Virus record (IMG/VR): IMGVR_UViG_3300045284_000132
From: an uncultured virus (IMG/VR IMGVR_UViG_3300045284_000132)
Lineage: Duplodnaviria > Heunggongvirae > Uroviricota > Caudoviricetes
DNA length: 64,000 nt
Strand: one strand, 5' to 3'
A model generated the notes under the pieces. It searched no databases. It saw nothing but the letters and a program-made list of their open reading frames with translations, and was not told the origin of the DNA. Made by a program: the position numbers and the translations under genes. Positions within the stretch are counted from its first letter, which is position 1; the number at the start of each line of letters is the position of its first letter. Below, piece after piece: positions 15,273 to 40,244 of this stretch.

Positions 15273-15899
15273 ATGACGGACACAGCCACAGCAGGGTTTC
15301 CCGACGTTTCGAAAGCTGAGCGCGAGCACGGCAAAAAGAGCAAGGGCGGGATAGACTTTCTCGCTGAGCATGTCGAACGCTGGCCGATCAGGAAGTTGTT
15401 TGCGAACAAGCGCAACGCGAAGCGGCATTCGCACGAACAGATTGCGCAGATCGCAGCCTCGATCAAGCAGTGGGGCTGGACGATGCCGATCCTTGTGAGT
15501 GACAGCGGCGAGATACAAGCTGGCGAGGGACGCTGGCTTGCGGCGAAGTCGCTCGACATCGAAGACGTGCCGGTGATTGTCGCGCGCGGCTGGTCGAGGA
15601 ATAAACGGCGGGCATACATGCTCGCGGACAATCGGATCGCCGAGAATGGTTCGTGGGACAAGGACGTGCTCGCGATCGAGCTTGGCGATCTGCGTGCCAG
15701 CGGGTTTGATGTGACGCTGACGGGTTTCAGTCAAAAGCAAATTGAAAATCTATTGCCGAAAGACGAAGCGGATGGCGACGGGTTGCAGTTGGGCGAGAAG
15801 TTTCAGATCATCGTCATCTGCGAGAATGAACAACAACAGCGTCAACTATTAGACAAGCTGCACAAGGACGGCGTCGAATGTCGGGCGCTAGTTGCATAA
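15273..15899 (+). CDS. ParB-like domain protein of the type linked to phage DNA-modification genes
   Basis: NAKRHSHEQIAQIAASIKQWGWTMPILV...IQAGEGRWLAAK...LADNRIAENGSWD. Confidence 0.88.
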   Translation: MTDTATAGFPDVSKAEREHGKKSKGGIDFLAEHVERWPIRKLFANKRNAKRHSHEQIAQIAASIKQWGWTMPILVSDSGEIQAGEGRWLAAKSLDIEDVPVIVARGWSRNKRRAYMLADNRIAENGSWDKDVLAIELGDLRASGFDVTLTGFSQKQIENLLPKDEADGDGLQLGEKFQIIVICENEQQQRQLLDKLHKDGVECRALVA

Positions 15900-17023
15900 A
15901 CGTAGAAATTGAAAACGAAAGTCAGATCGTCCGATCATCCCGCGTGATGCAGGTCGAGGGACTGTTTGATGTCCCACAAGCGCAGCGATCCGTCTCACGG
16001 TTCAACGTTTATCTGCCGCTACACGAAAGAGATTGGAACATCGGGCTGATCGTCGGGCCATCGGGCGCTGGCAAGAGCACGATCGCACGCAAGGCATTCC
16101 CTGAAGCATACTGCACGGGGTTCAACGATTGGCCGGAAGACGGTGCAGTTGTTGAAGCGTTTCCTGCTGAGATGTCGATCAAGGACATCACGCTGCTGCT
16201 GGCGTCCGTAGGTTTCTCATCGCCGCCTGCGTGGCTGCGACCATTCAGAACGCTGTCGAACGGCGAGCAATTCAGGGCGACGCTTGCGCGAGCGCTGGCA
16301 CAGTATCAAGAGCTTTGCGTGTTTGATGAATTCACTAGTGTTGTTGATCGCGTTGTCGGCAGGATCGGCTCATCCGCTGTTGCGAAGACAGTACGGCGGC
16401 GCGGGCAGCGCTTCATTGCGGTGACGTGTCACGACGATGTCACCGAATGGCTGGACCCGGATTGGGTTTACACGCCCGTCAGCAATTCGTTTCAATGGAG
16501 GTTACTTCGGGGTCGCCCCGCAATCGATCTTGAAATCGCCCGCGTTCACCATTCGGCGTGGAAAATATTCTATCGCCATCACTATCTGAGCCGCGATCTA
16601 AACAAAAGCGCGGCATGCTTTTGCGCTTTCATCGAGGGACGACCGGTTGCATTTCAGGCAGCGCTGCCGTTCGTCGGGCGATTGAGCACAAAGCAAAAGG
16701 CAATGCGCGGTTCTCGACTAGTAACGCTGCCCGACTATCAGGGCGTGGGCATCGGGCATCGTCTGGTCACAACGTTGGGCGGGATGTGGAAAGCACTCGG
16801 GTTGCGCGACTTCAGACCTAGCGGGCACATTGCTGAAATTGTTGCTGCTAGCAAGGACCCGAATTGGAAACTGATCCGCACGCATAGTCGCACCGCGCAT
16901 GACAGCGATAGCAGTCTATCAAGAACACGCGCATCCAATCGGCTGACGGTTTCATTCGAGTACGTCGGCCCAGCAATGGAAAAGGACAAAGCTGTTGCGC
17001 TGTTCAACTCGCGAGCTTGGTGA
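15878..17023 (+). CDS. ABC-type ATPase fused to a GNAT acetyltransferase
   Basis: GPSGAGKST, LSNGEQ, FDEFTS, VTCH; C-terminal acetyl-CoA-binding motif RLVTLPDYQGVGIG. Confidence 0.85.
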   Translation: MSGASCINVEIENESQIVRSSRVMQVEGLFDVPQAQRSVSRFNVYLPLHERDWNIGLIVGPSGAGKSTIARKAFPEAYCTGFNDWPEDGAVVEAFPAEMSIKDITLLLASVGFSSPPAWLRPFRTLSNGEQFRATLARALAQYQELCVFDEFTSVVDRVVGRIGSSAVAKTVRRRGQRFIAVTCHDDVTEWLDPDWVYTPVSNSFQWRLLRGRPAIDLEIARVHHSAWKIFYRHHYLSRDLNKSAACFCAFIEGRPVAFQAALPFVGRLSTKQKAMRGSRLVTLPDYQGVGIGHRLVTTLGGMWKALGLRDFRPSGHIAEIVAASKDPNWKLIRTHSRTAHDSDSSLSRTRASNRLTVSFEYVGPAMEKDKAVALFNSRAW

Positions 17024-17597: not shown

Positions 17598-18200
17598 TCA
17601 TCTCCGCTTCAGTATCTCGGACGGTTTCAAATCTAGCATGCCGCGCAGAACGCCAAGTGCGAGATTGAATTCCTGTTGTTTCATTGGCAGAAGTCCTTGC
17701 TCTCCGCGCGTCTCGGCGACGCGTAAAAAGTTTAGAATTTGCCGACGATCTTCCGATTGCGGTTGATTCCAAGTATAGAAATCAGCCATCGTTTCTCTCC
17801 TTTGTCCGATTGAACAAGATGGCGATGCGCTCGGGAACAACGACGCTGTCGTTGCACTTGCGACAGCATCGCCCGTTGTTGATCGGCTGCGCGTTGTGCC
17901 CGCCTGCCCAACCGGTTTCTGGTTCCGTCTCGATCGGCTGTTTGCAGATGCTGCAGATCAGTTGCTTGCGCTTCATTTTCCGTTTCCGTTTTGTGAGAGG
18001 CGTTTGCGCCCTTTGTCGTTAATCCAATAGCGCGTGACTTTGAAGCGCAGCGCGTTACAGCCGCAGTCCTGTTCCGCGATGCGCACTAAGTGTTGTTGTT
18101 CGAGCATCATGATTTCGGCGTCGCGAATGCCGTTGACTTTGAGCGCGTGATAGGTCGCCCCATCGGGACAGCCTGCCAGTATCGTGAGAGCTTTGTGCAC
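17598..18200 (-). other. Three short coupled hypothetical genes (about 17598-17790; 17782-17976 with CxxC motifs; 17973-18200)
   Basis: Overlapping starts and stops; CSIC...CCRKC. Confidence 0.55.
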
Positions 18201-18481
18201 TATCGCCTCCCGCCGCCGTAGGTCGAGCCGGTCGAACCGGTGCGAGAGCCGCCCGCGTCATAGAAGTTGCGCCCGCCGCTGCCGGTCGGCGACGACGTGC
18301 CGGTCGAGTTGCCGCGCGAGTCGTAGTAGCGCGTGTTGCCTTGGCTGTCGGTCGCTGCAGTGCCGACGTGATTGCCGCGCGAGTCGTAGAATGGTCGATC
18401 AGTCGTCTGCGCATGCGCGCACGACAGCGCGACTGCAACAGCCATGACGGCAACAATGCCGCCAGTCAGAACGTACTTCAT
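18200..18481 (-). CDS. Small secreted protein with YDxxGxxxG repeats
   Basis: Signal peptide MKYVLTGGIVAVMAVAVALSCAHA; repeats FYDSRGNHVGT / YYDSRGNSTGT / FYDAGGSRTGS; SD GGAG. Confidence 0.7.
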   Translation of the reverse strand: MKYVLTGGIVAVMAVAVALSCAHAQTTDRPFYDSRGNHVGTAATDSQGNTRYYDSRGNSTGTSSPTGSGGRNFYDAGGSRTGSTGSTYGGGRR

Positions 18482-18562
18482 GATTGTTTCTCCGCTATTC
18501 GTGCACGATTGCACGCGCATGTGCCGCGCCGCTGTGACGGCTGACACATGGACTTGCAATCA
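18482..18562 (-). promoter_or_regulatory. Degenerate structured leader (long stem plus alternative hairpin; lacks the CUUGCA hairpin)
   Basis: UGAUUGCA..CAUGUGUC...GGCACAUG..UGCAAUC starting at the upstream stop codon; alternative hairpin CGUGCA-AUCG-UGCACG. Confidence 0.5.
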
Positions 18563-18826
18563 ACGAACGATGCGCAGGCGCGGCTTAGATTTGCCTTGCA
18601 ATCGCTGCAGCGCTCGACGCGCCGCTTGCTCTGCCGTTTCGCGATGCGGCTTTGTCAGCGCTTCGGGATCGCGCGTCAGCCGATCGCCAGTCGCCGCGTT
18701 GCCGTTGGCTGTGACAAATCGCGGCGTCAGTCTGATGTTGCGACACTTGTGATGCGGCGGGCGCGCGTTCGGATCGTGCCACCAATTGCCGGTGCGAGGC
18801 ATAGTTTGCTTGCTGGTTAGTTTCAT
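18560..18826 (-). CDS. Hypothetical basic protein
   Basis: ATG follows the conserved leader (GGAGCCUAGCUAUG). Confidence 0.7.
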   Translation of the reverse strand: MKLTSKQTMPRTGNWWHDPNARPPHHKCRNIRLTPRFVTANGNAATGDRLTRDPEALTKPHRETAEQAARRALQRLQGKSKPRLRIVR

Positions 18827-18918
18827 AGCTAGGCTCCGTGGTTCAAAGGCTCGATGCAAGTCGAGCAGTCAGCTTATACCACGATCAAGGCAAACTTGAA
18901 AAGCGATATAAGGCTGAC
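18827..18918 (-). promoter_or_regulatory. Conserved structured leader, copy 7 (hairpin and SD core; upstream stem differs)
   Basis: GCUCGA-CUUGCA-UCGAGC...ACGGAGCCUAGCU-AUG. Confidence 0.8.
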
Positions 18919-18974
18919 AGCGACGCGCTCAGCTTTACGCTAAGCTAACACGCACGTGCAGGACTTTTGATTGC

Positions 18975-19004
18975 TTGCTTGTCGCCGCGATCGGGTGTTA
19001 GAAC
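18975..19004 (+). promoter_or_regulatory. Putative sigma70-type promoter for the antisense sRNA
   Basis: TTGCTT (18975-80), 18-nt spacer, TAGAAC (18999-19004) preceded by TGn (extended -10). Confidence 0.5.
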
Positions 19005-19010
19005 CTGATC

Positions 19011-19140
19011 AGTCGCTCGATGCGCTAGGCTCCTATCGTGCACAAAGCGTCGAGCAATTAGAGCGGGAAGTATTCATGCAAGTGCTTCGCCCGTTCCCAT
19101 AAAAAAGGGGCGGCTCTCGCGAGAGAGTCGCCCCTTGGTG
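19011..19140 (+). ncRNA. Putative trans-acting antisense sRNA complementary to the repeated leaders
   Basis: Three hairpins with G-U pairs that form only on the + strand; UAGGCUCCU (19026-34) and AUGCAAGU (19076-83) complement the leader SD and loop; last hairpin has a GCGA tetraloop. Confidence 0.7.
19101..19136. terminator. Intrinsic terminator, probably bidirectional
   Basis: AAAAAA-GGGGCGGCTCTC-GCGA-GAGAGTCGCCCC-TT; U6 tail on the minus strand. Confidence 0.85.
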
Positions 19141-19189
19141 CTTGGTGCAAGATCATCGTGATCTGATCAAGAAGTGTATCAACAACAAC

Positions 19190-19417
19190 TTAGTGCAGCG
19201 ACGAGCTTTGATGCATGCGATAGAACGCGAGATTGCTTGCGCGTTCCTTGGCGTCTTTTGCCCATCGACAGTTTCCCGGTTCGAACGAACGTCGATCGGG
19301 ATCGAGCATCGTGATCCAACTGAGCGCGTGCCAATCGGACTCTGTCATCGGCTCTGCGCCTTTCGTAAACTTCATCATCGCTTCGTATGCTTTGCGTCCG
19401 TCTGATCGTTTCATCAC
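19190..19417 (-). CDS. Short degenerate HNH-like protein
   Basis: ITMLDPDRRSFEPGNCRWA resembles the HNH C-terminal motif; ATGA-coupled to the ASCH gene. Confidence 0.5.
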   Translation of the reverse strand: MMKRSDGRKAYEAMMKFTKGAEPMTESDWHALSWITMLDPDRRSFEPGNCRWAKDAKERASNLAFYRMHQSSSLH

Positions 19418-19809
19418 AAAGCTCCGTGACGTTTGAGTGTAGCGAGCACATGATCGGGCGCATCGCGTAAACCGAGACTGCCGCCCGTCAACACAAACGG
19501 GAAGCGTCGCGCGTTTTCGAACACGAATGCATACGGTCCAATGAAGTATTTGCTGCGATGATGTTCGACTACATCAACAAGATCAGCAATTCCAATCACT
19601 GCACCCGTTCGCATGTCGTCGGGATATATATCGCGCAGTGCGCCGCCACGTTCGCAAACGATGTCGGACACGTCGCGATCATCCCACTTCAGACCGGCGT
19701 GAATTAGAACCGGCCCGCGATATTCCGTTGACCACGTGCGATTCTCGACAGGCTTGATACCCGCGACAATCAACGCAGCCCACGGCTGACGTACAGTTAG
19801 CATTTTCAT
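19414..19809 (-). CDS. ASCH domain protein
   Basis: MLTVRQPWAALIVAGIKPVENRTWSTEYRGPVLIHAG. Confidence 0.92.
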   Translation of the reverse strand: MKMLTVRQPWAALIVAGIKPVENRTWSTEYRGPVLIHAGLKWDDRDVSDIVCERGGALRDIYPDDMRTGAVIGIADLVDVVEHHRSKYFIGPYAFVFENARRFPFVLTGGSLGLRDAPDHVLATLKRHGAL

Positions 19810-19916
19810 TGTAGGCTCCTGTAACGTTGAGACGCGATGCAAGTCGCGTCAGTGTTCATCATGAACACTAGCAAGGACAGCGCGCGATTGCTCGCGCGTG
19901 CCCTTGGTGGTGCTCA
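19810..19916 (-). promoter_or_regulatory. Conserved structured leader, copy 6
   Basis: UGAGCACCACCAAGG..GCAA loop..CCUUGCUAGUGUUCAU-G-AUGAACACU-GACGCGA-CUUGCA-UCGCGUC..CAGGAGCCUACA-AUG. Confidence 0.9.
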
Positions 19917-20387
19917 GCGTTTCGTTTTCTTGCTACGCTTCGGCGTTTTGTGCAAGCGCATGATGCGACGAAAGTGCGCGCCGCTGATCTTGCGATGCTT
20001 CAACAACTCGAACGCGATGGCAATGATTTCGCTGCGATACAGCGTCACCATTTCGTGCGCTTGTGCGCATGCTGCGCGTCCGATGCGGAGATGACCACGC
20101 TGCTTGAAGCAGTTGATCAACGTCTCATGAAACGCTAGCAGATCGCGATCGCTGCCGCCGATATCGTCGCCGAGAATGACGTGTTCGGCTTCAACGCCCG
20201 CACGATCAACAACAAGATCGTCAAATGGTTCTGCACAGTAGCGCGACTGCGTGAGACCGCGACCATCGTGCAACAGCTTCGCCCATTCGACGTGTCGATC
20301 GCCATCGAGCACATATCCGATGACCATGTGACCGGCTTCATGCATTGCTACGTGAAGTCGATGTTTGCTTTTGGAGAATTTCGACAT
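19914..20387 (-). CDS. Small Zn-metalloprotease-like protein (HEXXH, FtsH/M41-protease-like domain)
   Basis: AMHEAGHMVI, AGVEAE, GSDRD. Confidence 0.75.
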   Translation of the reverse strand: MSKFSKSKHRLHVAMHEAGHMVIGYVLDGDRHVEWAKLLHDGRGLTQSRYCAEPFDDLVVDRAGVEAEHVILGDDIGGSDRDLLAFHETLINCFKQRGHLRIGRAACAQAHEMVTLYRSEIIAIAFELLKHRKISGAHFRRIMRLHKTPKRSKKTKR

Positions 20388-20490
20388 TGTAGGCTCCTGA
20401 GTTTGATTGCTCGCGATGCAAGGCGCGAGAGTGATCGATGATCACTAGCAAAGCGTCACGCGTTGAAGCGTGACGCCTTGGTGGCGATCA
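20388..20490 (-). promoter_or_regulatory. Conserved structured leader, copy 5
   Basis: UGAUCGCCACCAAGG...CUUUGCUAGUGAUC-AUC-GAUCACU-CUCGCG-CCUUGCAU-CGCGAG..CAGGAGCCUACA-AUG. Confidence 0.9.
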
Positions 20491-20748
20491 GTCTCCTGAT
20501 TCGTGTATGTGCTGAATGTAATACTCGCGAATCTCGCGAGCAGCATTGATCAGCGTGTCATAGTCGTAGGTGACGGGCTCGACTTGCTTCGCGTACAACG
20601 GCAGCACGCGATCGCGAATCCAATCCATCCACCCCATGACGCTGAGGTTATTGCGAGCCATCAGCTTGTGCAACTGATAAAACTCGCCAGTGTTAGTCGT
20701 GAACAGAACGAGGTCGTGCTGTTCGATCAGGCGTGGCGGGTTTTTCAT
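20488..20748 (-). CDS. Hypothetical protein (86 aa)
   Basis: ATGA-coupled to the upstream ORF. Confidence 0.7.
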   Translation of the reverse strand: MKNPPRLIEQHDLVLFTTNTGEFYQLHKLMARNNLSVMGWMDWIRDRVLPLYAKQVEPVTYDYDTLINAAREIREYYIQHIHESGD

Positions 20749-20966
20749 GACTGATAGACCTCCGCGTCAGCCCAACTGACTTGCGGCCAATTCTGCGGCT
20801 GCTTCGTTTCGAGACCGCGATGGAAGCGGTAGCGATTTTCGTGTGCGAAGCACGCGCAGCACAAGATAAGATTGCCGCCGCCGCCGAGAGGATAGATACG
20901 AACCTCGCCAAACGTTGATCGACAATAACTGCCACTGCAGTTTGCGTTGTGAGTCTTGTAGGACAT
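20745..20966 (-). CDS. Small Cys-rich (putative Zn-binding) protein
   Basis: NCSGSYC...GGNLILCCACF; follows a conserved leader. Confidence 0.75.
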   Translation of the reverse strand: MSYKTHNANCSGSYCRSTFGEVRIYPLGGGGNLILCCACFAHENRYRFHRGLETKQPQNWPQVSWADAEVYQS

Positions 20967-21062
20967 TCTTAGGCTCCTGATAGAGAAAACGCGATGCAAG
21001 TCGCGTTAGTGTTCGTTATGAACACTATGAGACGGCGCAACGCGCGCCGTCCTTAGTGATCA
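20967..21062 (-). promoter_or_regulatory. Conserved structured leader, copy 4
   Basis: UGAUCACUAAGG...CUCAUAGUGUUC-AUAAC-GAACACU-AACGCGA-CUUGCA-UCGCGUU..CAGGAGCCUAAGA-AUG. Confidence 0.9.
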
Positions 21063-21110
21063 GTGATGTCGAGCTAGCATGCGAGTCGATATGACTGCTC
21101 GCTCGGTGCA

Positions 21111-22616
21111 TCAGTGGGCACCTACGTCAATGCCCGGAGCATTCCAAGGAGTGCGCTTCAGATATTCGCGCACGACTTGCGGATAGCCCGTGACAGCAAA
21201 CAGAACCGGGCAATCAGGCTCGGGTCCGGGGCTGTCAAATTCTAGATCAGTGAAGTTAACGATCAGGGAAGCGTCAGGCTCATTCTCTGCTACCCAATCA
21301 AACAATGGGCGCATGTCAGTGCCACCGCCACCCTTCGGGTCGAATTCGATTTGATCGGTTGAAACGTATCGATCAACTCGGGTGACGCGCGTGTCACCGT
21401 AGACCACGATCGCTTCGTTGATTGCTCCGTCGTCAAGCGCGCCTTGCGCTTCACGCGCGACACAAGCGAGCGCAATGTCATCCATTGAACCCGAAGTGTC
21501 GATCAGAAACACGACTTTGTTCACACCGTCGCGCTGCGTGCCGGGAAGTATCATTCCCTGCCCGATGAAGCGGCGGTTCGGTCGGTTCCACGTTGCAATT
21601 GTAGTTGCGCCCTGATCGATCCAAGCTCGAAAGACTTCGCGCCAATCTTGCTTCGGTTCGTTCATGCGCGCAATCTCGCGAGTCATGTAACCCGGCAGAT
21701 CGCCCGCTTTCTTTGCGAGTGCGATTGCTTGCCGCGTTATCACTTCCCAACGCGAGTCTTGCTCAGCGATTTCCGCTTGCGTGTCTGCGGCGTCTAACAC
21801 TTCGCCGCACATGCCGGGATCGCCGCTGCTTTGCGGCTCGCTGTCGTCAGCGTCAGTGTCGCTCACAGCGTTGCCGCTGTCAGTTTCACTGTCGTCACTG
21901 TCGGCATTCGCTTGACCGTTACCAGTCGCGCTCGCGCTGTCAGTTTCGTTAGCGGCGTCGTCGTCGCTGTCACCGTTGCCGGTGGCGCTTTCGTCGTCGT
22001 CGCTGTCGCTGTTGCCGTCGTCGCTTTCGTCGGCGTCGTCACCTTGTTGATCGTTGCCGTTGTCGTCGGCGTCAGTGTCGCTTTCGTCAGCTTCACTGTC
22101 GTCGTTCGTTTCGTCGCTGTCGTCGTTCGACTGTTCATCGTTCGACTCGTTTTCGTCAGCGTCGTTGGCATCGTCGTCACTCTGTTGCTGTTGTTGCTGT
22201 TCGCGTGCTCGATCAAGCTCACGACAGCGATAAATATCTTCGGCAGACATACCTTGATATTTGGGATCGAACAAGCGTCCCTCGGGAAGCTCGAACCCTT
22301 CAGACAACAAGTCACCGTTGATGGCAAGATCACAGCAGATATTCCATTCCTGATGATCACGAAAACCGCGTCGAGATGAATGGTGGCGGGCATCGTGTTC
22401 GGTTTCGTGCGCTTGTACGCCCAGCAATTGCTTTTGCGTCAGCTTCGCAACGAATTCAGGATTGTAGAAGTGAGTCTTACCGTCAGTCGCCATCGTGGGC
22501 ACAGCCCGCGTTGGCTTCGGCATGACGTTCGCGACTAGCGTGCCGTAGAACACGCGCGACGCGATCAACTCGGCGCGAGCTTTTAGAATGCGCTCGGCTT
22601 GGAGTTTGTCAGTCAT
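21111..22616 (-). CDS. DUF2201-type putative metallopeptidase with acidic linker and VWA-like domain
   Basis: TMATDG, HETEH, WNICCDLAIN; D/S/N-rich linker; IDTSGSM, GGGGTDMRP, FTDL. Confidence 0.88.
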   Translation of the reverse strand: MTDKLQAERILKARAELIASRVFYGTLVANVMPKPTRAVPTMATDGKTHFYNPEFVAKLTQKQLLGVQAHETEHDARHHSSRRGFRDHQEWNICCDLAINGDLLSEGFELPEGRLFDPKYQGMSAEDIYRCRELDRAREQQQQQQSDDDANDADENESNDEQSNDDSDETNDDSEADESDTDADDNGNDQQGDDADESDDGNSDSDDDESATGNGDSDDDAANETDSASATGNGQANADSDDSETDSGNAVSDTDADDSEPQSSGDPGMCGEVLDAADTQAEIAEQDSRWEVITRQAIALAKKAGDLPGYMTREIARMNEPKQDWREVFRAWIDQGATTIATWNRPNRRFIGQGMILPGTQRDGVNKVVFLIDTSGSMDDIALACVAREAQGALDDGAINEAIVVYGDTRVTRVDRYVSTDQIEFDPKGGGGTDMRPLFDWVAENEPDASLIVNFTDLEFDSPGPEPDCPVLFAVTGYPQVVREYLKRTPWNAPGIDVGAH

Positions 22617-22726
22617 TGTAGGCTCCTGATGTAGTAGGACACGCGATGCAAGTCGCGCGAGCGATCGAATGATCACTAGCAAACGCAGCGCGCTGATTTC
22701 TCAGCGCGTGCGCTTGGTGGCGATCA
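22617..22726 (-). promoter_or_regulatory. Conserved structured leader, copy 3
   Basis: UGAUCGCCACCAAGC..GAAA loop..GUUUGCUAGUGAUC-AUUC-GAUCGCU-CGCGCGA-CUUGCA-UCGCGUG..CAGGAGCCUACA-AUG. Confidence 0.9.
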
Positions 22727-23779
22727 AGCAAGATATTTCGAAACGTCGGCGAGAATTTCTTCCGCTGACTTTTGCACAGACACGCGAACACTGTCATCCT
22801 TGCGGAGTGTTTCGGCATCGTCACCGCACAACTCTTTCAGAATGCGATCAGTGATCTGCGTCAGTGTCTTGTCGCCGGTCATGTTGAATGACGGCAGCAA
22901 GCGTCCAAGCTCGCGGACATTCTCGACAAGCGAGTCGGTGAAAAAAGCGCGCTGCGCAGTGTCAGGCGCTTTTTTCTTTTGGGCGCTCATGTATTTGATG
23001 GCGTCAGATTTCTTGGCGAAATCTTTAGAGTTGCCATCAGGACTTTGAACGCACCACGCGTTTTTGCGATTGGTCTTGAACAGTGACCACGCGCTGTTGC
23101 TGCTGAGCGTCGTTGTATACTCAGCAAGTTTTTCTGCCATGTGACCCACGACTTTTGCGATTTGCTCATGTGTGTGTTTCATGACGTTGTTAGTTGCTTG
23201 CTGACTGCAGGCTTCGATTTCTGCTCTGATGTCGGCTTCAGTGTCGGCATCTAAGTCTGATCGAAAGTCGGCAGCATCAGGCAGGCTGCTGATATGCAGA
23301 TCGAGTTGAAACTTTGATCTGATCTCGCTTGCTGCCGGATAATCTGCAGCGTTGAACAGCGTGCCAAGATTGGCACGACGCTCCTCAACATATTGCGGAT
23401 AGTCGCGGCAGAAGTCGTCAGCAGCTTGATGAAAGTCGCGCTTGATTTCTCGAAACTTAGTTGAGAATTCACCAAACAACGCGTTTGGCAACACGCGCGC
23501 GCCCTCATCTGCCCACGGCTTTGTCATCTTGTAATGCAAAGCACGTGCGGCGCTTACCATTTTTGTGATCGCTTCCAATCGCTCGGCTTCGATCAACAAC
23601 TTGTTGTAGCGCCCTGCATTCTCGGCTGCACCGTGTTTTTCGTTCACTTCGCGAGTGACGCGCTTGTCAAGTCGTCGCGCTGTCCACTGTGAGATGGTGA
23701 CAGACGCTAGGACTGCTTTGCGCGACAGCGGCGAAGCAACTGGCGCAGTCGAAGTCAGCATTTGGGTTTTAGCTAACAT
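22724..23779 (-). CDS. DUF3150-like phage protein
   Basis: AVLASVTISQWTARRLDK, TKPWADEGARVLP, LGTLFNAADYP, LLPSFNMTGD; lies between the AAA and DUF2201 genes. Confidence 0.65.
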   Translation of the reverse strand: MLAKTQMLTSTAPVASPLSRKAVLASVTISQWTARRLDKRVTREVNEKHGAAENAGRYNKLLIEAERLEAITKMVSAARALHYKMTKPWADEGARVLPNALFGEFSTKFREIKRDFHQAADDFCRDYPQYVEERRANLGTLFNAADYPAASEIRSKFQLDLHISSLPDAADFRSDLDADTEADIRAEIEACSQQATNNVMKHTHEQIAKVVGHMAEKLAEYTTTLSSNSAWSLFKTNRKNAWCVQSPDGNSKDFAKKSDAIKYMSAQKKKAPDTAQRAFFTDSLVENVRELGRLLPSFNMTGDKTLTQITDRILKELCGDDAETLRKDDSVRVSVQKSAEEILADVSKYLA

Positions 23780-23875
23780 TGTAGGCTCCTGATAGTTTGA
23801 AAGTAACCCGATGCAAGTCGGGAGCGTTCGGGATGAACACTATGACAGCGCCCGTGGGCGCTGCTTTAGTGATCA
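23780..23875 (-). promoter_or_regulatory. Conserved structured leader, copy 2
   Basis: UGAUCACUAAAG...UCAUAGUGUUC-AUCCC-GAACGCU-CCCGA-CUUGCA-UCGGG..CAGGAGCCUACA-AUG. Confidence 0.9.
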
Positions 23876-24874
23876 CTGAATCAAGACATCTTGATTCTTC
23901 ACAGCCCAATTTCCATAGGCTGCGATGTTCTTTAGGTTCTCATCTCGGCGCGTTGCATCAGTAACTGCCAAGATTTGAAATTCGCGCGGCAATCTCTCGG
24001 CGTACTTGACGACTGCCGGGAAATTTTTGCGCGTCGCCATTCGCGCGATGCCGGTGCAAACGGCATATCGCGCGGACGGCTCAGACGGAACGTCTGCGCT
24101 CTCAGGGTTTGCGATGATGTCATCGAGTGAACCCAGCGAGCGATACAAACGAATGAACCCTTCAAGCTCACCCGCGACAGCGTCGCCGATAAGCCCCGCA
24201 AACAAGTCGTGCCGCAGATCATCGGGCGCACCGACATACTTGCTGCACTTTGTGAGTGAGCGAGGAGTCGGAAACGCGTTTTCGTCACCGTTCGGCATGA
24301 CGTGAATGAATTCACGACGAAAACGAACGAACGCGATAATTTCAGGCGCAACATTGTTTGCAACTGCCCATGTCGTCCATGCATCAACATCAACGCAGAT
24401 GTCGATGTGTGCGAAGCGATTGCGCAACGCTGTAGGCATGCGTTGTGCTGCTGCGCGGTCTCTGACGCGATTGCCCGCTGCGACGATCGTCCACCCATCG
24501 GGCAAACGATATTCGCCAATCTTTCGTTCGAGGACGAGACCCATGCACACTGCCATCACTTGCGCGCTGGCGGTGTTCATCTCATCAAGAAACAAAGTGC
24601 CGCGCGGACCGTCACGATCAGCGCGAGGCAATTCGTCAGGGGTGAACCATCGAGTCGTGCACGTCTTGATGTCGGTGACAGGCACGCCCCGAAAATCGAC
24701 AGGCTCGCGAAGATTGGTGCGAAGCTCGATCACGGGACGCTTGTCAGCGGCAGACTCTTGATTCGAAACGTCGGTCTTGCCAATTCCCGGTGCGCCCCAC
24801 AGGAAGACAGGTTCATTCTGCTTCATGTAGTAGGAAAGCAAACGCGCGGCTTTGGCAATGTTAACTTCTGGCAT
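23873..24874 (-). CDS. MoxR/dynein-related AAA+ ATPase
   Basis: WGAPGIGKT, LFLDEMN, AAGNR, ALRNRF, FPTPRS. Confidence 0.92.
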   Translation of the reverse strand: MPEVNIAKAARLLSYYMKQNEPVFLWGAPGIGKTDVSNQESAADKRPVIELRTNLREPVDFRGVPVTDIKTCTTRWFTPDELPRADRDGPRGTLFLDEMNTASAQVMAVCMGLVLERKIGEYRLPDGWTIVAAGNRVRDRAAAQRMPTALRNRFAHIDICVDVDAWTTWAVANNVAPEIIAFVRFRREFIHVMPNGDENAFPTPRSLTKCSKYVGAPDDLRHDLFAGLIGDAVAGELEGFIRLYRSLGSLDDIIANPESADVPSEPSARYAVCTGIARMATRKNFPAVVKYAERLPREFQILAVTDATRRDENLKNIAAYGNWAVKNQDVLIQ

Positions 24875-24979
24875 TGTAGGCTCCTGATAGTTAGGAAATG
24901 CTCGATGCAAGTCGAGCAGATACGCGACAGCGCATCATGAGACAGTCGAGCAAATTTATCACTCGACTGTCCTTGATAC
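24875..24979 (-). promoter_or_regulatory. Conserved structured leader, copy 1
   Basis: GUAUCAAGG...CUCAUGAUGCGC-UGUC-GCGUAUC-UGCUCGA-CUUGCA-UCGAGCA..CAGGAGCCUACA-AUG. Confidence 0.9.
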
Positions 24980-25608
24980 ACTAATGCAGCGCGCGTCAGG
25001 AAACGGCGCTGCATGTTGACCCTCCTAAGCGGAGAGCCCTTGATCAGATTCACGATGGGAAAAAACGCGTGCTTGAATTGTGGGGCTGACGAAGTTTTCA
25101 GCGCGCAACGATCAACTCGGATCGCGCGCAGGTACTGACGCTTGTCTCTGCTTACTTACATTCGCATCGCTTCCGGCGACGCCCCGTCCCTGTGATGATC
25201 ACGCTTGCAACGCGATCATCGAACAGCACGCTAACACTGATTCAGATTTCTTGATCGCATCGCATCGCATGAAGCTAGTGGCGTTTTCGGATCGTCGTTG
25301 TTCGTCTCGGCGCGAGAGCATCGCGACGATTCACAACTGCCTACTAACAGCGGTCGCCAACGCGGCGGCGCGATCAAGGAAGTCGTCTGATTCAGTTGTC
25401 AAATAGCGAAAGCTCAAAAGCACTAGATCAGCGTTTTCAAGCTCAACTTGAATATCGCAAATCCACAGTTACGCGTCAATCTTTATCCCTACGGGCAAGC
25501 TATTGAAATCACAGGCGAATTTAGGTCGAACATCGCAGAAACGTTGATTCTATTGACTTTCTGGCATGTGCGACGGGCGGTAATGTCACCAACGGTAGCG
25601 GTAGCGCA

Positions 25609-26265
25609 ATGGCCGATGAAGCTGGAATCATCTCAACTGATGTCGCGGTCAAGTTGTTGTTGCTCGATAACGCAAAGGAGTTGCAAGCGCTATCAGCGGC
25701 GGGCTGGTTTAATCGCGTGGGGATCAACCGGTGGCGCACTGTTGAATTGGTGCACGGTCGCATCAAACAATTGAAGCAAGCCGCAGATCTTGTCAGCAGC
25801 GGTCGCCTCGCAGAAATATTCAACGTGCATCACACACAGCTTTTGAAGCTCGAACGCGAGGGCTGGTTTCGACGCGAAGCGAACAATCAATGGTCGCTGA
25901 TCAAAGTCATCGGCGGGGTCATGCGCTACTACACGGACCCGGCGCGTCGCGCGAATAAGTCAGCGACAGAGTCGAGGGTCGGTCAAGCTCGCGCGCGAGA
26001 AATCGAGTTGCGCACGGCGCAGCGCGCTGGCGAATTGTGCGAGACTGCGGAAGCTGTCGCGCTGGTCGATGACATCGTTGGAATGCTACGCGCTGATCTG
26101 TCGGGGTTGCCTGCAATGGTAACGCGTGATCTTGTTATCAGGCGCGACATTGAAAAGGCGTTGAATGACATCCTCAATCGAATCTCGGCGCGTCTCATCT
26201 TGCAAGCCGACAGTTTGGAAAAGAGCGGGGAAGTTGCTATCCGTCCCGTCGCTCTCGACTCCTGA
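25609..26265 (+). CDS. terS: Terminase small subunit (Nu1-like)
   Basis: HTH-like N-terminal half and coiled coil ARAREIELRTAQRAGEL; immediately before the large subunit. Confidence 0.8.
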   Translation: MADEAGIISTDVAVKLLLLDNAKELQALSAAGWFNRVGINRWRTVELVHGRIKQLKQAADLVSSGRLAEIFNVHHTQLLKLEREGWFRREANNQWSLIKVIGGVMRYYTDPARRANKSATESRVGQARAREIELRTAQRAGELCETAEAVALVDDIVGMLRADLSGLPAMVTRDLVIRRDIEKALNDILNRISARLILQADSLEKSGEVAIRPVALDS

Positions 26266-30698: not shown

Positions 30699-32996
30699 GT
30701 GCGCTCGCAAATTCCTGAGTTAGAACCCGAAGACGACGAGGACGAGGAAGAATTTATCGAGCGCTGCATGGAAGCAGGGTTCGATGAGGACGAATGCCAA
30801 TTGTGGTGGGATGAAGGAGTTTATGCGATGGAAGGCACCCGATCACTAATCACGAACGGCGAACTAATCCTTTATGGCGTGATTGATCCCGAATCGTGGT
30901 TCGAGGATAGCGTGCGCGCGATCGATGTGCTCGACAGCATCGCGACTCTGCCAGTGGGGTCGCCAGTTGTTGCTCGCATCAATTCTCCCGGTGGCTCGCT
31001 TGAGGAAGGGATTGCGATCTACAATCTCCTGCGTGCCTCGCAGCGTCGGATCGAGATTGTGATTGATGCAATGGCTGCATCGGCAGCGAGCATCGTTGCG
31101 ATGGCTGGCGATAGCATCAAGATGATGCAGGGCTCAACGATGATGTTGCACGATCCGTGGGCGATGGTGGTCGGCAACGCGGATGATCTGCGATCGTCAG
31201 CCGAAATAATCGACATGCAACGCGATCAGATGATCGACATCTATTCGAAGCGATCAGGTTTGAGTCGGGATGAAATCGGGCAAATGATGAAGGCCGAAAC
31301 CTATCTAACAGCACAACAGGCAAAAGCCAAAGGTTTCGCAGACTTGATTGATGAAGCACCTATGCGCGTCGCGGCTTGCGCGAAGCTCGATGCGGCCTCA
31401 ATGGCAAAGTTACTTCGCGCAAAACCGACTATTGCGGCCCCCGCCGCGCAAACCCGGAGTTACATCATGAATAGGACGCCTGAAAACGGCGGGACGCCCG
31501 CCGTTCCTACTCCTTCCCCACTGACACCAGAGCAGATCGAGGCCGCGCGAGCAATCTTTACGCAAGCGGCGGCAAACCCCAACCAGCCGACGCCGCAGCC
31601 GGAGCCGAAGCCGCAGCCCTCGCCGCCGCATCAGCCGCCGCATCAGCCGCAACCGGAGCCGAAGCCGGGAACGATAGTCGATATTCAAGCGGCAACACGC
31701 GATGCCATCGCGGCGGAACGTGGTCGCGTCGCCGGAATCACTCAGCACGTTCGAGCGGCCAAGCTGCCGCCTGAGTTTGCCGAGGAATTGGTCAATTCCG
31801 GCATCAGTCTCGATGATGCGCGCGACAAGATTTATGCGCGCTGGAATGAAATCCACACCGCGCCGACGCATCAAGAGAATCCCCCGATTAACGGGATCAA
31901 TGCGATCATCACCGTCGATCAACTCGACAAATGGATCGACGGAGTCAGCAAAGGACTCATGGCCCGTGCCAACATGAAGGGCGGCGAGCGCAACGAATTC
32001 AGCGGATTGACGCTGAGCGAGTTGGCGCGATCCTCTCTGCAATTGCGCGGCGTCAAAAGCGGCGCGATGGATCGCATGACAATGATCGGCGCGGCGTTCA
32101 CGGTGCGCGCTGAAGGACCCGGTTATCATTCCACCAGCGACTTCGGGAACATTCTCGGCAACGTCGCGCATCGTGCGATGATGATCGGCTATGAGGAAGT
32201 CGAGGAAACATTCCCGCTGTGGACCGGCAAGGGCACGGCGACAGACTTCCGCCCGATCGCTCGCATCGATCTTGGCTTGTTCCCCGGTCTCGATAAGGTC
32301 GAGGAAGGCGGCGAGTACAAGTACGGGACGATCGCTGACACAGGAACATCGGTGCAGATCGCCACCTACGGCAAAATGTTTGCCATTACTCGACAGGCGA
32401 TCGTCAATGATGATCTTGGTTTCTTTAATCGCGTGCCACGCAAGATGGGGCGCGGTGCCAAGCGCACGATCGGCAATCTCGTTTATGCGATCATCAACGG
32501 CAATCCGGTGATGCAGGACGGCGTTGCTTTGTTTGCTACAGCGCACGGCAATCTCGCTCCGACGCCTGCCGTTCCTTCAGTGACATCAGTCGGTGCCGCG
32601 CGTGCAGCGATGGCACGTCAGACTGACGAGGCAGGAATCGGTACTGCGATCGGTGTCTCGCCGAAGTTTGCGCTGACGCCGCCTGAATACGCGATGGTCA
32701 TGAACACTGTCATGACATCAGAGCGCATCCCCGGTGACGCCGGTCAGATCAGCAACCCGGTGCGTGGCGTCGCGACGCCGATTTATGATACCCGGCTCAA
32801 CGGCACTGCTTGGTATCTGATTTCTGATCCGCAGCAGGTTGACACGGTCGAGGTAACTTATCTTGACGGCGTCGAAACGCCATTCATGGATCAGCGTGAA
32901 GGCTGGAATGTTGATGGTGCGGAATTCAAAGTCCGCATTGATGCTGGCGTGAAGGCGTTGCACTGGCGCGGACTCTACAAGAACGCTGGCGCTTAG
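30699..32996 (+). CDS. ClpP-like (S14) prohead protease, scaffold and major capsid fusion
   Basis: INSPGG, AASAAS, MLHDPW, ETYLTA; P/Q-rich linker; HSTSDF...TYGKMFAITRQAIVNDDL...YLDGVETP. Confidence 0.93.
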   Translation: MRSQIPELEPEDDEDEEEFIERCMEAGFDEDECQLWWDEGVYAMEGTRSLITNGELILYGVIDPESWFEDSVRAIDVLDSIATLPVGSPVVARINSPGGSLEEGIAIYNLLRASQRRIEIVIDAMAASAASIVAMAGDSIKMMQGSTMMLHDPWAMVVGNADDLRSSAEIIDMQRDQMIDIYSKRSGLSRDEIGQMMKAETYLTAQQAKAKGFADLIDEAPMRVAACAKLDAASMAKLLRAKPTIAAPAAQTRSYIMNRTPENGGTPAVPTPSPLTPEQIEAARAIFTQAAANPNQPTPQPEPKPQPSPPHQPPHQPQPEPKPGTIVDIQAATRDAIAAERGRVAGITQHVRAAKLPPEFAEELVNSGISLDDARDKIYARWNEIHTAPTHQENPPINGINAIITVDQLDKWIDGVSKGLMARANMKGGERNEFSGLTLSELARSSLQLRGVKSGAMDRMTMIGAAFTVRAEGPGYHSTSDFGNILGNVAHRAMMIGYEEVEETFPLWTGKGTATDFRPIARIDLGLFPGLDKVEEGGEYKYGTIADTGTSVQIATYGKMFAITRQAIVNDDLGFFNRVPRKMGRGAKRTIGNLVYAIINGNPVMQDGVALFATAHGNLAPTPAVPSVTSVGAARAAMARQTDEAGIGTAIGVSPKFALTPPEYAMVMNTVMTSERIPGDAGQISNPVRGVATPIYDTRLNGTAWYLISDPQQVDTVEVTYLDGVETPFMDQREGWNVDGAEFKVRIDAGVKALHWRGLYKNAGA

Positions 32997-35139: not shown

Positions 35140-36678
35140 ATGCCGATAAGCATGGACATCCCCGTTTCGTGGCGCATGCCGCTTTTTTGGTTGCAAGTCG
35201 ATCCTTCGATGGCAGGGCTCGGCGTTCCGCAACTAGTGGCGCTTATGGTCGGGCACAAGTTGGACACAGGCTCAGCACCAGACAATGTGCCAGTGCCGAT
35301 CGGCTCGAAAGCGCAGGCGACTGCCGCGTTTGGTGCAGGCTCGATGCTCGAAGCAATGTTCAACAAATTCTTCGACAACAACTTCAGCACGCTTGTGTGG
35401 GGATTGCCGATTCCTAGTCCCGCTGCAGGAACGCCCGCGCACGGCACGATCACCGTTGCGACGGCTGCAACTGATGCCGGGTCGTTGTACGTCTACATCG
35501 CGGGGCAAAAAGTCGGCGTGCGCGTGCACGCTGGCGATGCGGTAGATGTCATCGCGACCAATCTGGCGACGCAGATCAATGCCATTCCATCAATGCCGGT
35601 GGATGCTGTTGCTGCTACAGGAGTCGTCACACTGACATGCAAATGGGATGGCATCACCGGCAACGACATCGACATGCGCGACAACTATCTCGGCACGCGC
35701 GGCGGCGAAAAGCTCCCACCCGGTGTCACGCTGACGTATTCCAATCCGAACGCGCCATCGAGTCTCGGCGGCAAGCTCGGCAGCGGCAGCGGTGTTCCTG
35801 ATTGCACAACGGCAATCGCCAATCTCGGCGAAGCGAATTTCGAATATGTCGCGCTGCCCTTTACCGACACGAACACGATGCTCGATTGGAATTTTGAGTA
35901 CGGGTTTGAGGACGGTCGGTGGTCGTGGCTGCGTGAGCAATACGGCATGTGCTTCCAAGCGCGGCGCGCAACTTATGCCGATCACATCATTTGGGCACAG
36001 GACAACAACTTCCCGGTCCTATCAGTGATGGCAGTCGAAGTTGATACGCCGTCGCCGGTGTGGGAATGGTCGGCGGCGTACTGTTCGATGGGCGCTCGCG
36101 CGTTCAATGCCGATCCTGCGCGCCCGCTGCAGACTCTTGGGCTGCAGAAAATCTGGCCTGCTCCGTTGCACACTCGTTTCTCGATAACGGAGAACAACAA
36201 TATGTGGGGACTTGCTCGACAGAGAGTCGGATCACAACAGGTGCCGATCATCCTTCGAGAATCCACCACCTATCAATTCAATGAGTACGGTGTTCCTGAT
36301 GATGCCTATGAGGTTTTGACCACGCTCGCAACGTTGGCGCGATTGTTCCGCGATTTGAAAGCGGACATCACCACGAAATTCCCGCGTCATAAACTTTGCG
36401 ATGATGACACGCGGCTGGGACCGGGGCAGGCAGCAGTAAGTCCGAAGATCATCAAGGCGGAAATTATCGCGTACTACGAATACGAGGAATATTTGGGACT
36501 CTGCGAAAACTCGCGCGAGTTTAAGCGACATCTGATAGTCGAGCGCAACGTTCAGGACCCAAACCGGCTTGATGTGTTATTCCCTCCTGACATCATCAAT
36601 CAGTTACGTGTGATGGCAGTGCTCGGACAATTCCGACTCCAGTATGATAGATCAATCGACTCGTTAGTCGCTGCCTGA
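35140..36678 (+). CDS. Tail sheath protein (Mu gpL-like)
   Basis: FGAGSML, DPARPLQTL, FPRHKL, VERNVQDPNRLDVLFPPDIINQLRV. Confidence 0.95.
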   Translation: MPISMDIPVSWRMPLFWLQVDPSMAGLGVPQLVALMVGHKLDTGSAPDNVPVPIGSKAQATAAFGAGSMLEAMFNKFFDNNFSTLVWGLPIPSPAAGTPAHGTITVATAATDAGSLYVYIAGQKVGVRVHAGDAVDVIATNLATQINAIPSMPVDAVAATGVVTLTCKWDGITGNDIDMRDNYLGTRGGEKLPPGVTLTYSNPNAPSSLGGKLGSGSGVPDCTTAIANLGEANFEYVALPFTDTNTMLDWNFEYGFEDGRWSWLREQYGMCFQARRATYADHIIWAQDNNFPVLSVMAVEVDTPSPVWEWSAAYCSMGARAFNADPARPLQTLGLQKIWPAPLHTRFSITENNNMWGLARQRVGSQQVPIILRESTTYQFNEYGVPDDAYEVLTTLATLARLFRDLKADITTKFPRHKLCDDDTRLGPGQAAVSPKIIKAEIIAYYEYEEYLGLCENSREFKRHLIVERNVQDPNRLDVLFPPDIINQLRVMAVLGQFRLQYDRSIDSLVAA

Positions 36679-39732: not shown

Positions 39733-40244
39733 TGCCCGGTCGCACGCAATACGGAATGCCCTCGAACCCGTGGCGGGACAAGTATCAGCAAGCATCATTC
39801 CGTGGCGCGATCTTTCACACGGAAACTGATGCAAGGAATTCCGGTCGTCGTGTTGCTCTGCATCAGTACCCAAAAAAAGATATACCCTACGCAGAGGACA
39901 TGGGCAGGCGTGCTGTTCGACATCCGATCACGGGCTATCTGATCGGCCCAAACTATATCGGCCCGCGCGATGAGTTGATCAAAGCCTTGGAGACTGAAGG
40001 ACCGGGGCAATTGATTCATCCGCTGCTCGCGCCGATGCAAGTCATCTGTGACAATTATACGATCACAGAAAGTCGTGAGCGCGGCGGTTATTGCGTGTTC
40101 GAGATGCAATTTGTTGAAGCCGGGTCCGATCAAGGATCGGTGGCGACGCAGTCAACATCGGCGCAAGCCTCACAATCTGCCGCAGCGACATCGCAAGCTG
40201 CCGCCGCCAGTTTCAATCAGCAAGTGCAGGCATTCAATCAATGA
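39732..40244 (+). CDS. Mu DNA-circularisation protein, N-terminal domain
   Basis: ASFRG, GRRVALHQYP, AEDMGR, GPGQLIHP, FVEAG. Confidence 0.88.
   Translation: MPGRTQYGMPSNPWRDKYQQASFRGAIFHTETDARNSGRRVALHQYPKKDIPYAEDMGRRAVRHPITGYLIGPNYIGPRDELIKALETEGPGQLIHPLLAPMQVICDNYTITESRERGGYCVFEMQFVEAGSDQGSVATQSTSAQASQSAAATSQAAAASFNQQVQAFNQ

Follow-up and report, generated by a model that had tools for sequence, protein, structure and literature searches.

Here we describe a structured intergenic leader of approximately 100 nt that recurs in a 64-kb stretch of viral DNA, IMG/VR record IMGVR_UViG_3300045284_000132 (hereafter the window, meaning the whole 64,000 nt analysed). Six full copies lie on the minus strand, with start codons at 24874, 23779, 22616, 20966, 20387 and 19809, together with one partial copy (18826) and one gene-less remnant (19090-19020). 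All of these elements sit in the sole long minus-strand operon of the window, which runs from ~25000 down to 18200. The data support the leader as a structured, co-varying, two-state element of the sense strand that is conserved in many related phages, where the distinct instances number more than 120 and each genome or operon has six to ten copies.

Read 5′ to 3′, the leader comprises a segment A, the GC-rich upper hairpin of a helix H1, segments B and C, a hairpin H3 with a YUUGCA(A)-type loop, an A/C-rich unstructured spacer, a lineage-specific GGAG box and the AUG. Segments A and C are each complementary to B; A:B pairing extends H1, and B:C pairing forms a helix H2 that directly abuts H3. 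The six leaders of the window can be aligned from the upstream stop through the ATG. Their H3 stems are CGCGA/UCGCG (four copies, one with an A-to-C change), CCCGA/UCGGG and CUCGA/UCGAG around a constant CUUGCA loop, the same three variants that a first-pass annotation of this DNA had reported, and 15 to 20 nt separate H3 from the box. Allowing up to one mismatch, GACTTGCATC has 18 matches in the window compared with 7.55 ± 2.84 in shuffled sequence (0/100 shuffles reach 18), and seven of the 18 are the operon copies. At the same tolerance CAGGAGCCTA has 9 matches compared with 1.29 ± 1.10, and all six of its exact matches directly precede the start codons of the six leaders. An exact word at 40034 falls inside a plus-strand gene and was judged to be a chance occurrence. 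Each full copy folds with a z-score between -3.4 and -5.4, and in no case did any of 200 shuffles fold equally well; for the partial copy (z -3.05) 4/200 shuffles were equal or better. The repeated structured leader proposed in the first-pass annotation is thus present in six full copies, with conserved words and folds well beyond those of shuffled sequence.

The same element was found in related phages. A first search with a single protein gave only relatives of up to 41% identity, all motif-free, and therefore an alignment-based search was needed. The AAA_5 ATPase encoded by the operon has ~1900 relatives, many of them 58-68% identical; an alignment of 34 of these was used to retrieve 80 IMG/VR loci, and the DNA flanking the ATPase gene was read in 52. 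Most loci with an ATPase ~55-67% identical carry the same leader architecture beside the ATPase gene. In order, it consists of a stop codon, GUGAnCACUA, a GC hairpin, (Y)AUAGUG, GUGUUCAU..GAACAC, a GC stem with a loop such as CUUGCAA, CUGCAAA, YCGCAAC or CUAGCA, an A/C-rich spacer, a GGAG box and ATG. The ACTTGCAT loop of the window itself recurs three times in one locus (L069). The H3 loop is constant within each phage and variable between lineages (CUUGCA(A), CUGCAA(A), YCGCAAC, CUAGCA, CUUGCU). Likewise, the bases after GGAG are constant per phage and vary by lineage: GGAGTCAC is commonest, the window has GGAGCCTA, and GGAGTCTACA, GGAGATTTCC, GGAGCAAG and AAAGGTCAC occur elsewhere. Across loci L048-L116 the loop word partly changes together with the box after GGAG.

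A candidate script requiring an H3-like hairpin, AGTG..CAC and a Shine-Dalgarno (SD) sequence with ATG returned 68 candidates. After removal of non-leaders (L067:8123, L101, L111, L114, L115) and near-duplicates (L067:9096, L094:7945, L094:12984, L116:8962), the remaining 59 were combined with the six window copies in an alignment of 65 rows (A4), and the structure called on A4 by RNAalifold (H1 upper stem and H2, with H3 outside the model) was used to build a covariance model, R1. We searched 96 of the 101 loci of L022-L042 and L048-L127, omitting five duplicates (1.21 Mb). There were 162 matches at an expectation value (E) <= 0.001, every one on the gene strand, and all fall in 39 IMG/VR loci among L048-L094 and L116, in which the AAA_5 ATPase is ~55-67% identical. 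In the window itself R1 recovered the six copies and, weakly, the partial copy (E 0.016), all in the minus-strand operon; three other matches (E 0.01-0.89) at 31349-31469 (+), 36134-36204 (+) and 21015-21132 (opposite copy 4) were judged to be chance. An alignment of 121 distinct leader rows (A5) was used for most of the tests below.

Covariation was the check that the first-pass annotation had suggested for its stems, and the H1 upper stem, H2 and H3 all show it. On A4, 9 of the 12 pairs of H1 upper and H2 have compensatory changes; on A5 all 12 pairs have them, on both sides. Moreover, 96.3% of the cells of these pairs are paired on A5 compared with 76.3% after shuffling (a value not attained by any of 500 shuffles); in slid controls the figure is 32-50%. 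Compensated changes also occur in the interior of H2 within one phage, where only AGUG/CACU is fixed. A hairpin of at least 5 contiguous bp is present at H3 in 111/121 leaders compared with 575/2420 shuffles, with 72 distinct 5′ stems. In H3 rows selected by the loop word CTTGCAA alone (30/121, 21 distinct), 82.9% of cells are paired compared with 58.3% after shuffling, with a covariation score of 0.518 compared with 0.166 (0/500 shuffles). To include the H3 pairs, a further model was made from an alignment (A6) that joins the six window copies to 111 rows of A5, leaving out the 10 that were weakest or truncated.

Segment B takes part in two mutually exclusive pairings. The observation that the 3′ strand of the H1 base doubles as the 5′ strand of H2, made in the first-pass annotation, is correct, B being common to both helices. 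So is its remark that three segments have changed together in copy 1, which has GUGUAUCA / UGAUGCGC / GCGUAUC for A, B and C. When leaders were folded only through B and the five bases that follow, those five paired back to A in nearly all 65 rows. When the B extension was exchanged for foreign bases differing at >=3 positions, a leader's own bases were better than the foreign mean in 64/65 cases, by a mean of -3.0 kcal/mol. The A region of A5 was aligned by sequence alone and so is not fitted to A:B pairing; on this alignment the seven A:B pairs hold 46 compensatory cells compared with 13.8 expected. The energies of the two states (C blocked versus A blocked) differ by -1.7 ± 2.6 kcal/mol, and by <=2 kcal/mol in 33/65 leaders; 48 of the 65 prefer A:B, 16 prefer B:C and one is tied. 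Taken together, the pairing, swap and energy results indicate that A and C are alternative partners of B and that all three co-vary.

The stems also carry a signature of strand. G.U cells outnumber A.C cells by 136 to 10 in H1 upper and H2, and by 72 to 25 in the A:B pairs. Such an excess points to sense-strand RNA, since the opposite strand or duplex DNA would lack the bias. We infer that the leader acts as RNA in vivo.

The first-pass annotation likened H1 to the internal-loop RNase III signals of the T7 early transcript, and the predicted geometry is compatible with this (17-20 bp with a small internal loop). By predicted fold, H1 extended by A:B is 17-20 bp long in 91/121 leaders, typically with 4 bp, a 1x1 mismatch, 5 bp, a 1x2 or 2x2 internal loop, 9-11 bp and a loop of 4-5 nt. 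According to PMC1540722, reactivity with E. coli RNase III depends chiefly on an epitope of two helical turns, possibly achieved by coaxial stacking, and an internal loop restricts cutting to one strand and leaves a protective 3′ hairpin. Predicted H1 has both features, a helix of about two turns and, between the A:B lower stem and the upper stem, an internal loop of 1x2 or 2x2; the rules are those of E. coli and may not be those of the host. H2 starts 1-3 nt past the 3′ side of this loop.

We therefore put forward, tentatively and with rather less than even confidence, a cut-and-refold model in which the leader would be a cis-acting sense-strand RNA module between cistrons. On the polycistronic transcript, host RNase III, an endonuclease specific for double strands, would take the A:B form as its substrate. 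Cleavage at the internal loop of H1, on its 3′ side, would leave the upstream message ending in the H1 hairpin, and the downstream message would begin 1-3 nt before B. B would then snap onto C, such that the new 5′ end would consist of H2 in a stack with H3, and an open spacer and a strong ribosome-binding site would follow. A 5′-terminal hairpin shields a message from RNase E, as in the ompA leader. In this way every gene would obtain a message of its own, translated separately and stabilised to a uniform degree. The cutting of the RNA, its assignment to RNase III and its stabilising effect are what we infer. Cut and refold would explain why A mirrors C, why the helix length is held and why copy 1 has the set with no upstream gene.

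Several observations weigh against this reading. The percentage of A:B pairs formed on A5 exceeds that of shuffles only modestly (78.8% compared with 72.2%, 0/500; slid controls 18-48%), and columns 8/77 are a habitual mismatch, unpaired in 55/121 rows. In the model-fitted alignment A7, H3 was only 61.9% paired because loop length shifts the register, and for this reason the rows tested above were selected by loop word. Leader instances are paralogues and orthologues, related within and between genomes, and are not independent samples, so that shuffle controls overstate their independence. Total folding energy is the same on both strands (sense -38.9, antisense -39.2 kcal/mol; sense more stable in 56/121), and the strand call thus rests on the wobble counts and orientation. 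Moreover, four loci (L052, L070, L074, L079) with an ATPase ~60-65% identical have junctions of 10-20 nt and no leader after the ATPase gene. The module is therefore dispensable for the operon, and its presence or absence among close relatives indicates that it has been gained or lost between close lineages. In L063/L065/L096 the junction after the ATPase gene has only a hairpin with a U-run. Finally, RNase III alone does not account for the constancy of the H3 loop or for the strongly conserved sequence of H2 (GUGUUCAU...GAACAC), and both suggest a further factor.

It is possible, and we would put it no higher than that, that the leader is an RNA punctuation module of novel design. Here the bistable A/B/C switch would offer a two-turn helix either for cutting or for melting by a terminating ribosome, the same strand would be re-used as the 5′ hairpin of the next message, and the H3 loop would be the handle for a factor. 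One standard cassette would in this way turn a phage operon into messages that are stabilised and translated separately.

A translation-termination sensor that works without cleavage is unlikely. In this scheme a ribosome at the segment A stop would melt A:B and B would pair with C, such that the H2-H3 stack would form only on messages with a translated upstream gene and would couple the fate of the downstream gene, in factor binding, stability or initiation, to upstream translation, much like an attenuator. Its attraction lies in the near-equal energies of the two states, the three-way co-variation of A, B and C, and the position of stop codons: the stop of a long upstream open reading frame (ORF) falls exactly on the segment A UGA in 65/121 leaders and within 12 nt in 97/121. 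In the window the real UGA stop of the upstream gene, given in the first-pass annotation as the usual start of H1, is contained in H1 in 4/6 copies; in copy 4 the UGA comes 48 nt after the real stop, and no gene precedes copy 1. However, copy 1 keeps its A/B/C set, and so do, in whole, the 24/121 leaders with no long-ORF stop within 12 nt of the UGA (column 5 of A5), and processing therefore fits better than a pure termination sensor. Nor does a mini-ORF substitute for the missing stop: where the segment A UGA does not end an ORF of >=45 codons, as is the case in 27 distinct leaders, an in-frame start was found in only 6, with no pattern. Retention of the UGA out of frame is explained by its pairing with UCA in B. 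Furthermore, the mean predicted unpaired probability from SD to AUG over 117 leaders was 0.536 unconstrained and 0.542 with segment A blocked. Gating of the SD site by the switch thus finds no support in folding, and the regulatable ribosome-binding site envisaged in the first-pass annotation is not borne out by these predictions.

We consider it improbable that the leader is an operator for a trans-acting RNA-binding factor, with the H3 loop, and perhaps H2, bound by a phage or host protein that would set translation or decay jointly and with H1 as a 3′ stabiliser or insulator. An operator would account for a loop that is constant per phage and variable by lineage while its stems vary, and for a box after GGAG that is likewise lineage-specific, and it resembles the question left open for the mycobacteriophage repeats in the available part of PMC3203893 (see below). 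On the other hand, no candidate factor emerged. Only the three core genes of the operon are common, and they are equally frequent in loci with and without leaders; ASCH was found in just 9/39 loci with leaders and 2/41 without (flanks <=7 kb). The mirroring of C by A would also be left unexplained.

Passive intercistronic hairpins, which would block exonucleases and Rho loading and space the genes, with the A/C similarity a by-product of duplication, have a similarly low probability. Strong GC hairpins do stand right behind stop codons, and the true terminator of the last gene has the same flank as H1, yet such hairpins would need neither a conserved loop, nor a conserved helix length, nor an A that co-varies with the C-pairing part of B.

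A DNA-level element, be it a promoter, a repressor operator (the H2 inverted repeat), a terminator-promoter cassette or a recombination linker, is very unlikely. H2 is a near-perfect inverted repeat located at gene boundaries, the gene-less remnant exists, both strands are equal in total fold energy and the leader is present or absent among close relatives, all of which would suit such an element. Against it stand the wobble bias of the stems, the compensated changes in the H2 interior within one phage, the variable distance from H3 to the box and a gene order around leaders that is conserved and not shuffled. That the conserved boxes might act as promoters, an alternative raised in the first-pass annotation, also fares poorly: a scan of 8 kb for sigma-70-like sites (-35/-10 hexamers, 16-18 nt spacing; other promoter types were outside the scan) gave 4 compared with 4.1 expected, none of them in a leader. 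H1 is followed by B and not by a U-run, and a scan for intrinsic terminators gave 11 sites compared with 10.6 expected, its only leader matches being H3 of copies 2 and 4. Likenesses to sigma-54 sites, integron attC, hammerhead and boxA/boxB, compared by eye with consensus sequences only, were dropped. Lastly, a new class of self-cleaving RNA punctuating the transcript without a host enzyme is hardly credible, for despite conserved unpaired nucleotides beside helices (CUA-AG, YCA-UAGUG, the H3 loop) and a location where processing would be useful, there was no Rfam ribozyme match at E <= 10 and no sign of a tertiary core.

The individual copies of the window, all on the minus strand, are as follows; the first-pass annotation found the six full copies but placed each one base above the A of its ATG. 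Copy 1 (24872..24984; z -5.37, model E 1.3e-06) precedes the AAA_5 ATPase gene, the first in the operon, and has, besides its divergent A/B/C set, an H3 core at 24913-24904 and an SD box at 24886-24877. A 76-codon frame (24823-25053) with an inner AGGAGG-N6-ATG (ATG at 25014) spans this copy, enters the ATPase gene out of frame and probably does not represent a gene. Copy 2 (23777..23880; z -3.39, E 1.4e-18) lies before the DUF3150 gene, with the upstream UGA stop (23875-23873) in segment A, an H3 of CCCGA-CUUGCA-UCGGG (core 23819-23810) and the SD box at 23791-23782. Before the DUF2201 gene, copy 3 (22614..22730; z -4.67, E 1.8e-14) likewise has the UGA stop (22726-22724) in segment A, with the H3 core at 22654-22645 and the SD box at 22628-22619. 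Copy 4 (20964..21066; z -4.89, E 6.7e-22), before the gene for a 73-aa Cys-rich protein, is the copy whose UGA (21062-21060) is distinct from the upstream stop (21113-21111); its H3 core is at 21002-20993 and its SD box, at 20979-20970, is followed by AGAAUG. Copy 5 (20385..20494; z -4.97, E 1.6e-15) precedes a 157-aa M41-like gene and has the UGA stop (20490-20488) in segment A, H3 GCCUUGCAUC with one change relative to the core (20424-20415) and the SD box at 20399-20390. Copy 6 (19807..19920; z -4.31, E 1e-15) precedes the ASCH-domain gene, with the UGA stop (19916-19914) in segment A, the H3 core at 19845-19836 and the SD box at 19821-19812. The H1 tetraloops reported earlier for two copies are those of copy 3 (GAAA) and copy 6 (GCAA).

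Leaders are lacking where genes overlap, as had been proposed for coupled genes: neither the ATGA junction between the 73-aa and 86-aa genes (20748-20745) nor the GTGATG junction between the ASCH gene and a 75-aa gene (19417-19412) has one. The last coupled gene is followed by a hairpin (19101..19140) that carries six consecutive U and forms an intrinsic-terminator-like end. It opens with the CACCAAGG flank, the same as H1 of copies 3, 5 and 6, gave only weak near-matches in Rfam and is missing from the terminator-scan list; from the shared flank, H1 and this hairpin may have a common origin. Within the 270-nt gap between it and an 88-aa gene lies the remnant (19020..19090), which was missed by the first-pass annotation. 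It has ACTTGCAT (19083-19076) and TAGGAGCCTAGC (box 19035-19026) but is followed by neither a start codon nor an ORF, and its sequence suggests a lost gene or a decayed cassette. The partial leader (18824..18891) before the 88-aa gene, previously listed at 18827, does exist but is weak; it has an H3 of CUCGA-CUUGCA-UCGAG (core 18862-18853) and a variant box, CGGAGCCUAGCUAUG, without a recognisable A/B/C set. An extended -10-like word, TGGTATAAG, at 18873-18881 (-) lies ~7-12 nt ahead of this H3 and was not called by the promoter scan; a transcript begun there would have the H3 of the partial leader at its start. A second partial copy listed at 18482 could not be upheld, as that site has only an SD-like GGAG and no covariance-model match at E <= 1.

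The operon comprises three core genes, for the AAA_5 (MoxR-like) ATPase, a DUF3150 protein and a DUF2201 metallopeptidase/VWA protein, and seven small genes. In order, the core genes are followed by the 73-aa Cys-rich gene with the overlapping 86-aa gene, the 157-aa M41-like gene, the ASCH-domain gene with the overlapping 75-aa gene, the U-run hairpin and two further small genes. The DUF2201 protein (21111-22616, -) has a run of ~125 residues (residues ~138-262) between its metallopeptidase and VWA parts that is composed almost entirely of D, N, S, E, T, G, A and Q. The 73-aa protein (20745-20966, -) has five cysteines (C10, C15, C36, C37, C39) and no family match, with relatives in 5/80 related loci; its cysteines could serve metal or nucleic-acid binding. 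Converging on the operon end is a plus-strand ORF of 381 aa (15878-17023) with weak ABC-ATPase and GNAT acetyltransferase matches.

Nearly all other genes of the window are on the plus strand, and they identify it as a tailed-phage or prophage genome: an integrase (908-2224), a large terminase of the gpA type, a portal of the lambda type and a tail sheath are among them. A ClpP-type protease domain and a major capsid domain are fused in a single 765-aa ORF (30699-32996, +). A search of the window for tRNA genes found none. In public runs its DNA was matched only in soil-metagenome assemblies, in four DNA contigs and no RNA data set. The best ATPase relative in a cultured phage is 35% identical. 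A Variovorax genome with a 36% identical relative had no leader match, and a close ATPase was not found in a sample of 401 genomes of the class of that Variovorax. A blastn search of the 6.7-kb region against phage records gave no match. Scans for the exact H3 core and box returned 21 single matches in IMG/VR and 4 in JGI metagenomes, which on reading were chance, and one locus that resembled a leader locus (L019) had a single copy and no hairpin.

In summary, the leader represents a well-supported structured RNA family without a match among Rfam models, in a soil-phage clade without a cultured member. Its design, in which one strand is common to two co-varying helices and the upstream stop lies inside one of them, constitutes a testable proposal on how the genes of one phage transcript may be separated and balanced. 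Standing before nearly every gene of the operon, the leader may well serve to have the message cut and stabilised one gene at a time. A compact, modular intercistronic cassette of this kind, if working as proposed, could be useful for operon engineering.

How does the leader compare with known systems? A cmscan of 18000-25700 against Rfam 15 at E <= 10 gave 7 weak matches, none on a leader and none at gathering score, and literature searches in a limited library gave nothing on the element: that on DUF3150 yielded one unrelated preprint, and none of the 12 titles listed for phage intergenic stem-loops and processing concerns it. In attenuator leaders of the trp type, pairings are mutually exclusive and the position of the ribosome on the 5′ partner can decide between them. 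The leader is alike in that one strand has two possible partners between which ribosome position could choose. However, it has no U-run terminator after either form, its sensor would be the stop of a full-length gene, and there are six to ten copies per operon. Promoter early stem-loop (PeSL) cassettes of T4-type phages and hairpins like the repetitive extragenic palindromes (REP) are repeated intergenic stem-loops that are gained or lost and protect the upstream message. The leader also flanks many genes and has been gained and lost, but no promoter was found in it, its structure is conserved with compensation rather than as a DNA repeat, and the gene order is fixed. Of the two nearest described analogues, one is the group of RNase III signals of the T7 early transcript (R1.1 type), which are intercistronic in a phage polycistronic RNA and form an irregular hairpin of about two turns with an internal loop, the epitopes being those described in PMC1540722; by its predicted geometry the leader would share with them a single cut that leaves a protective 3′ hairpin. 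What is particular to the leader is a third segment, C, able to win back the 3′ strand from the lower stem, a conserved-loop hairpin and a fixed ribosome-site box behind it, and a stop codon that is usually part of the lower stem; in sequence the two are not similar.

The other analogue, to which the leader looks similar in kind, is formed by the start-associated sequences (SAS) and extended start-associated sequences (ESAS) of Cluster K mycobacteriophages, as set out in the available part of PMC3203893. There, SAS are asymmetric, SD-containing 13-bp boxes, 5′-GGGATAGGAGCCC, a few bases before the start codons of a subset of non-structural genes in one orientation, and their consensus differs between subclusters. 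Immediately ahead of about half of them are the ESAS, imperfect inverted repeats whose spacer varies and for which that part of PMC3203893 shows no RNA structure; the function of both is stated to be unknown. Like them, the leader is restricted to some of the non-structural genes, all in a single orientation, and has inverted repeats ahead of its box. Host and phage lineage are different, however, and the sequences are unrelated: the window box is CAGGAGCCTA(C/A), that of relatives GGAGTCAC, GGAGCAAG, AAAGGTCAC and others, and only GGAGCC is common to the window box and the SAS box as given there. The window leader is therefore not a member of SAS/ESAS, because the defining box differs, and it has as features of its own three co-varying hairpins and a bistable A/B/C set that is linked to the stop codon of the upstream gene. 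For the start-associated repeats of mycobacteriophages, which have lacked an explanation, the leader provides a model at the level of RNA.

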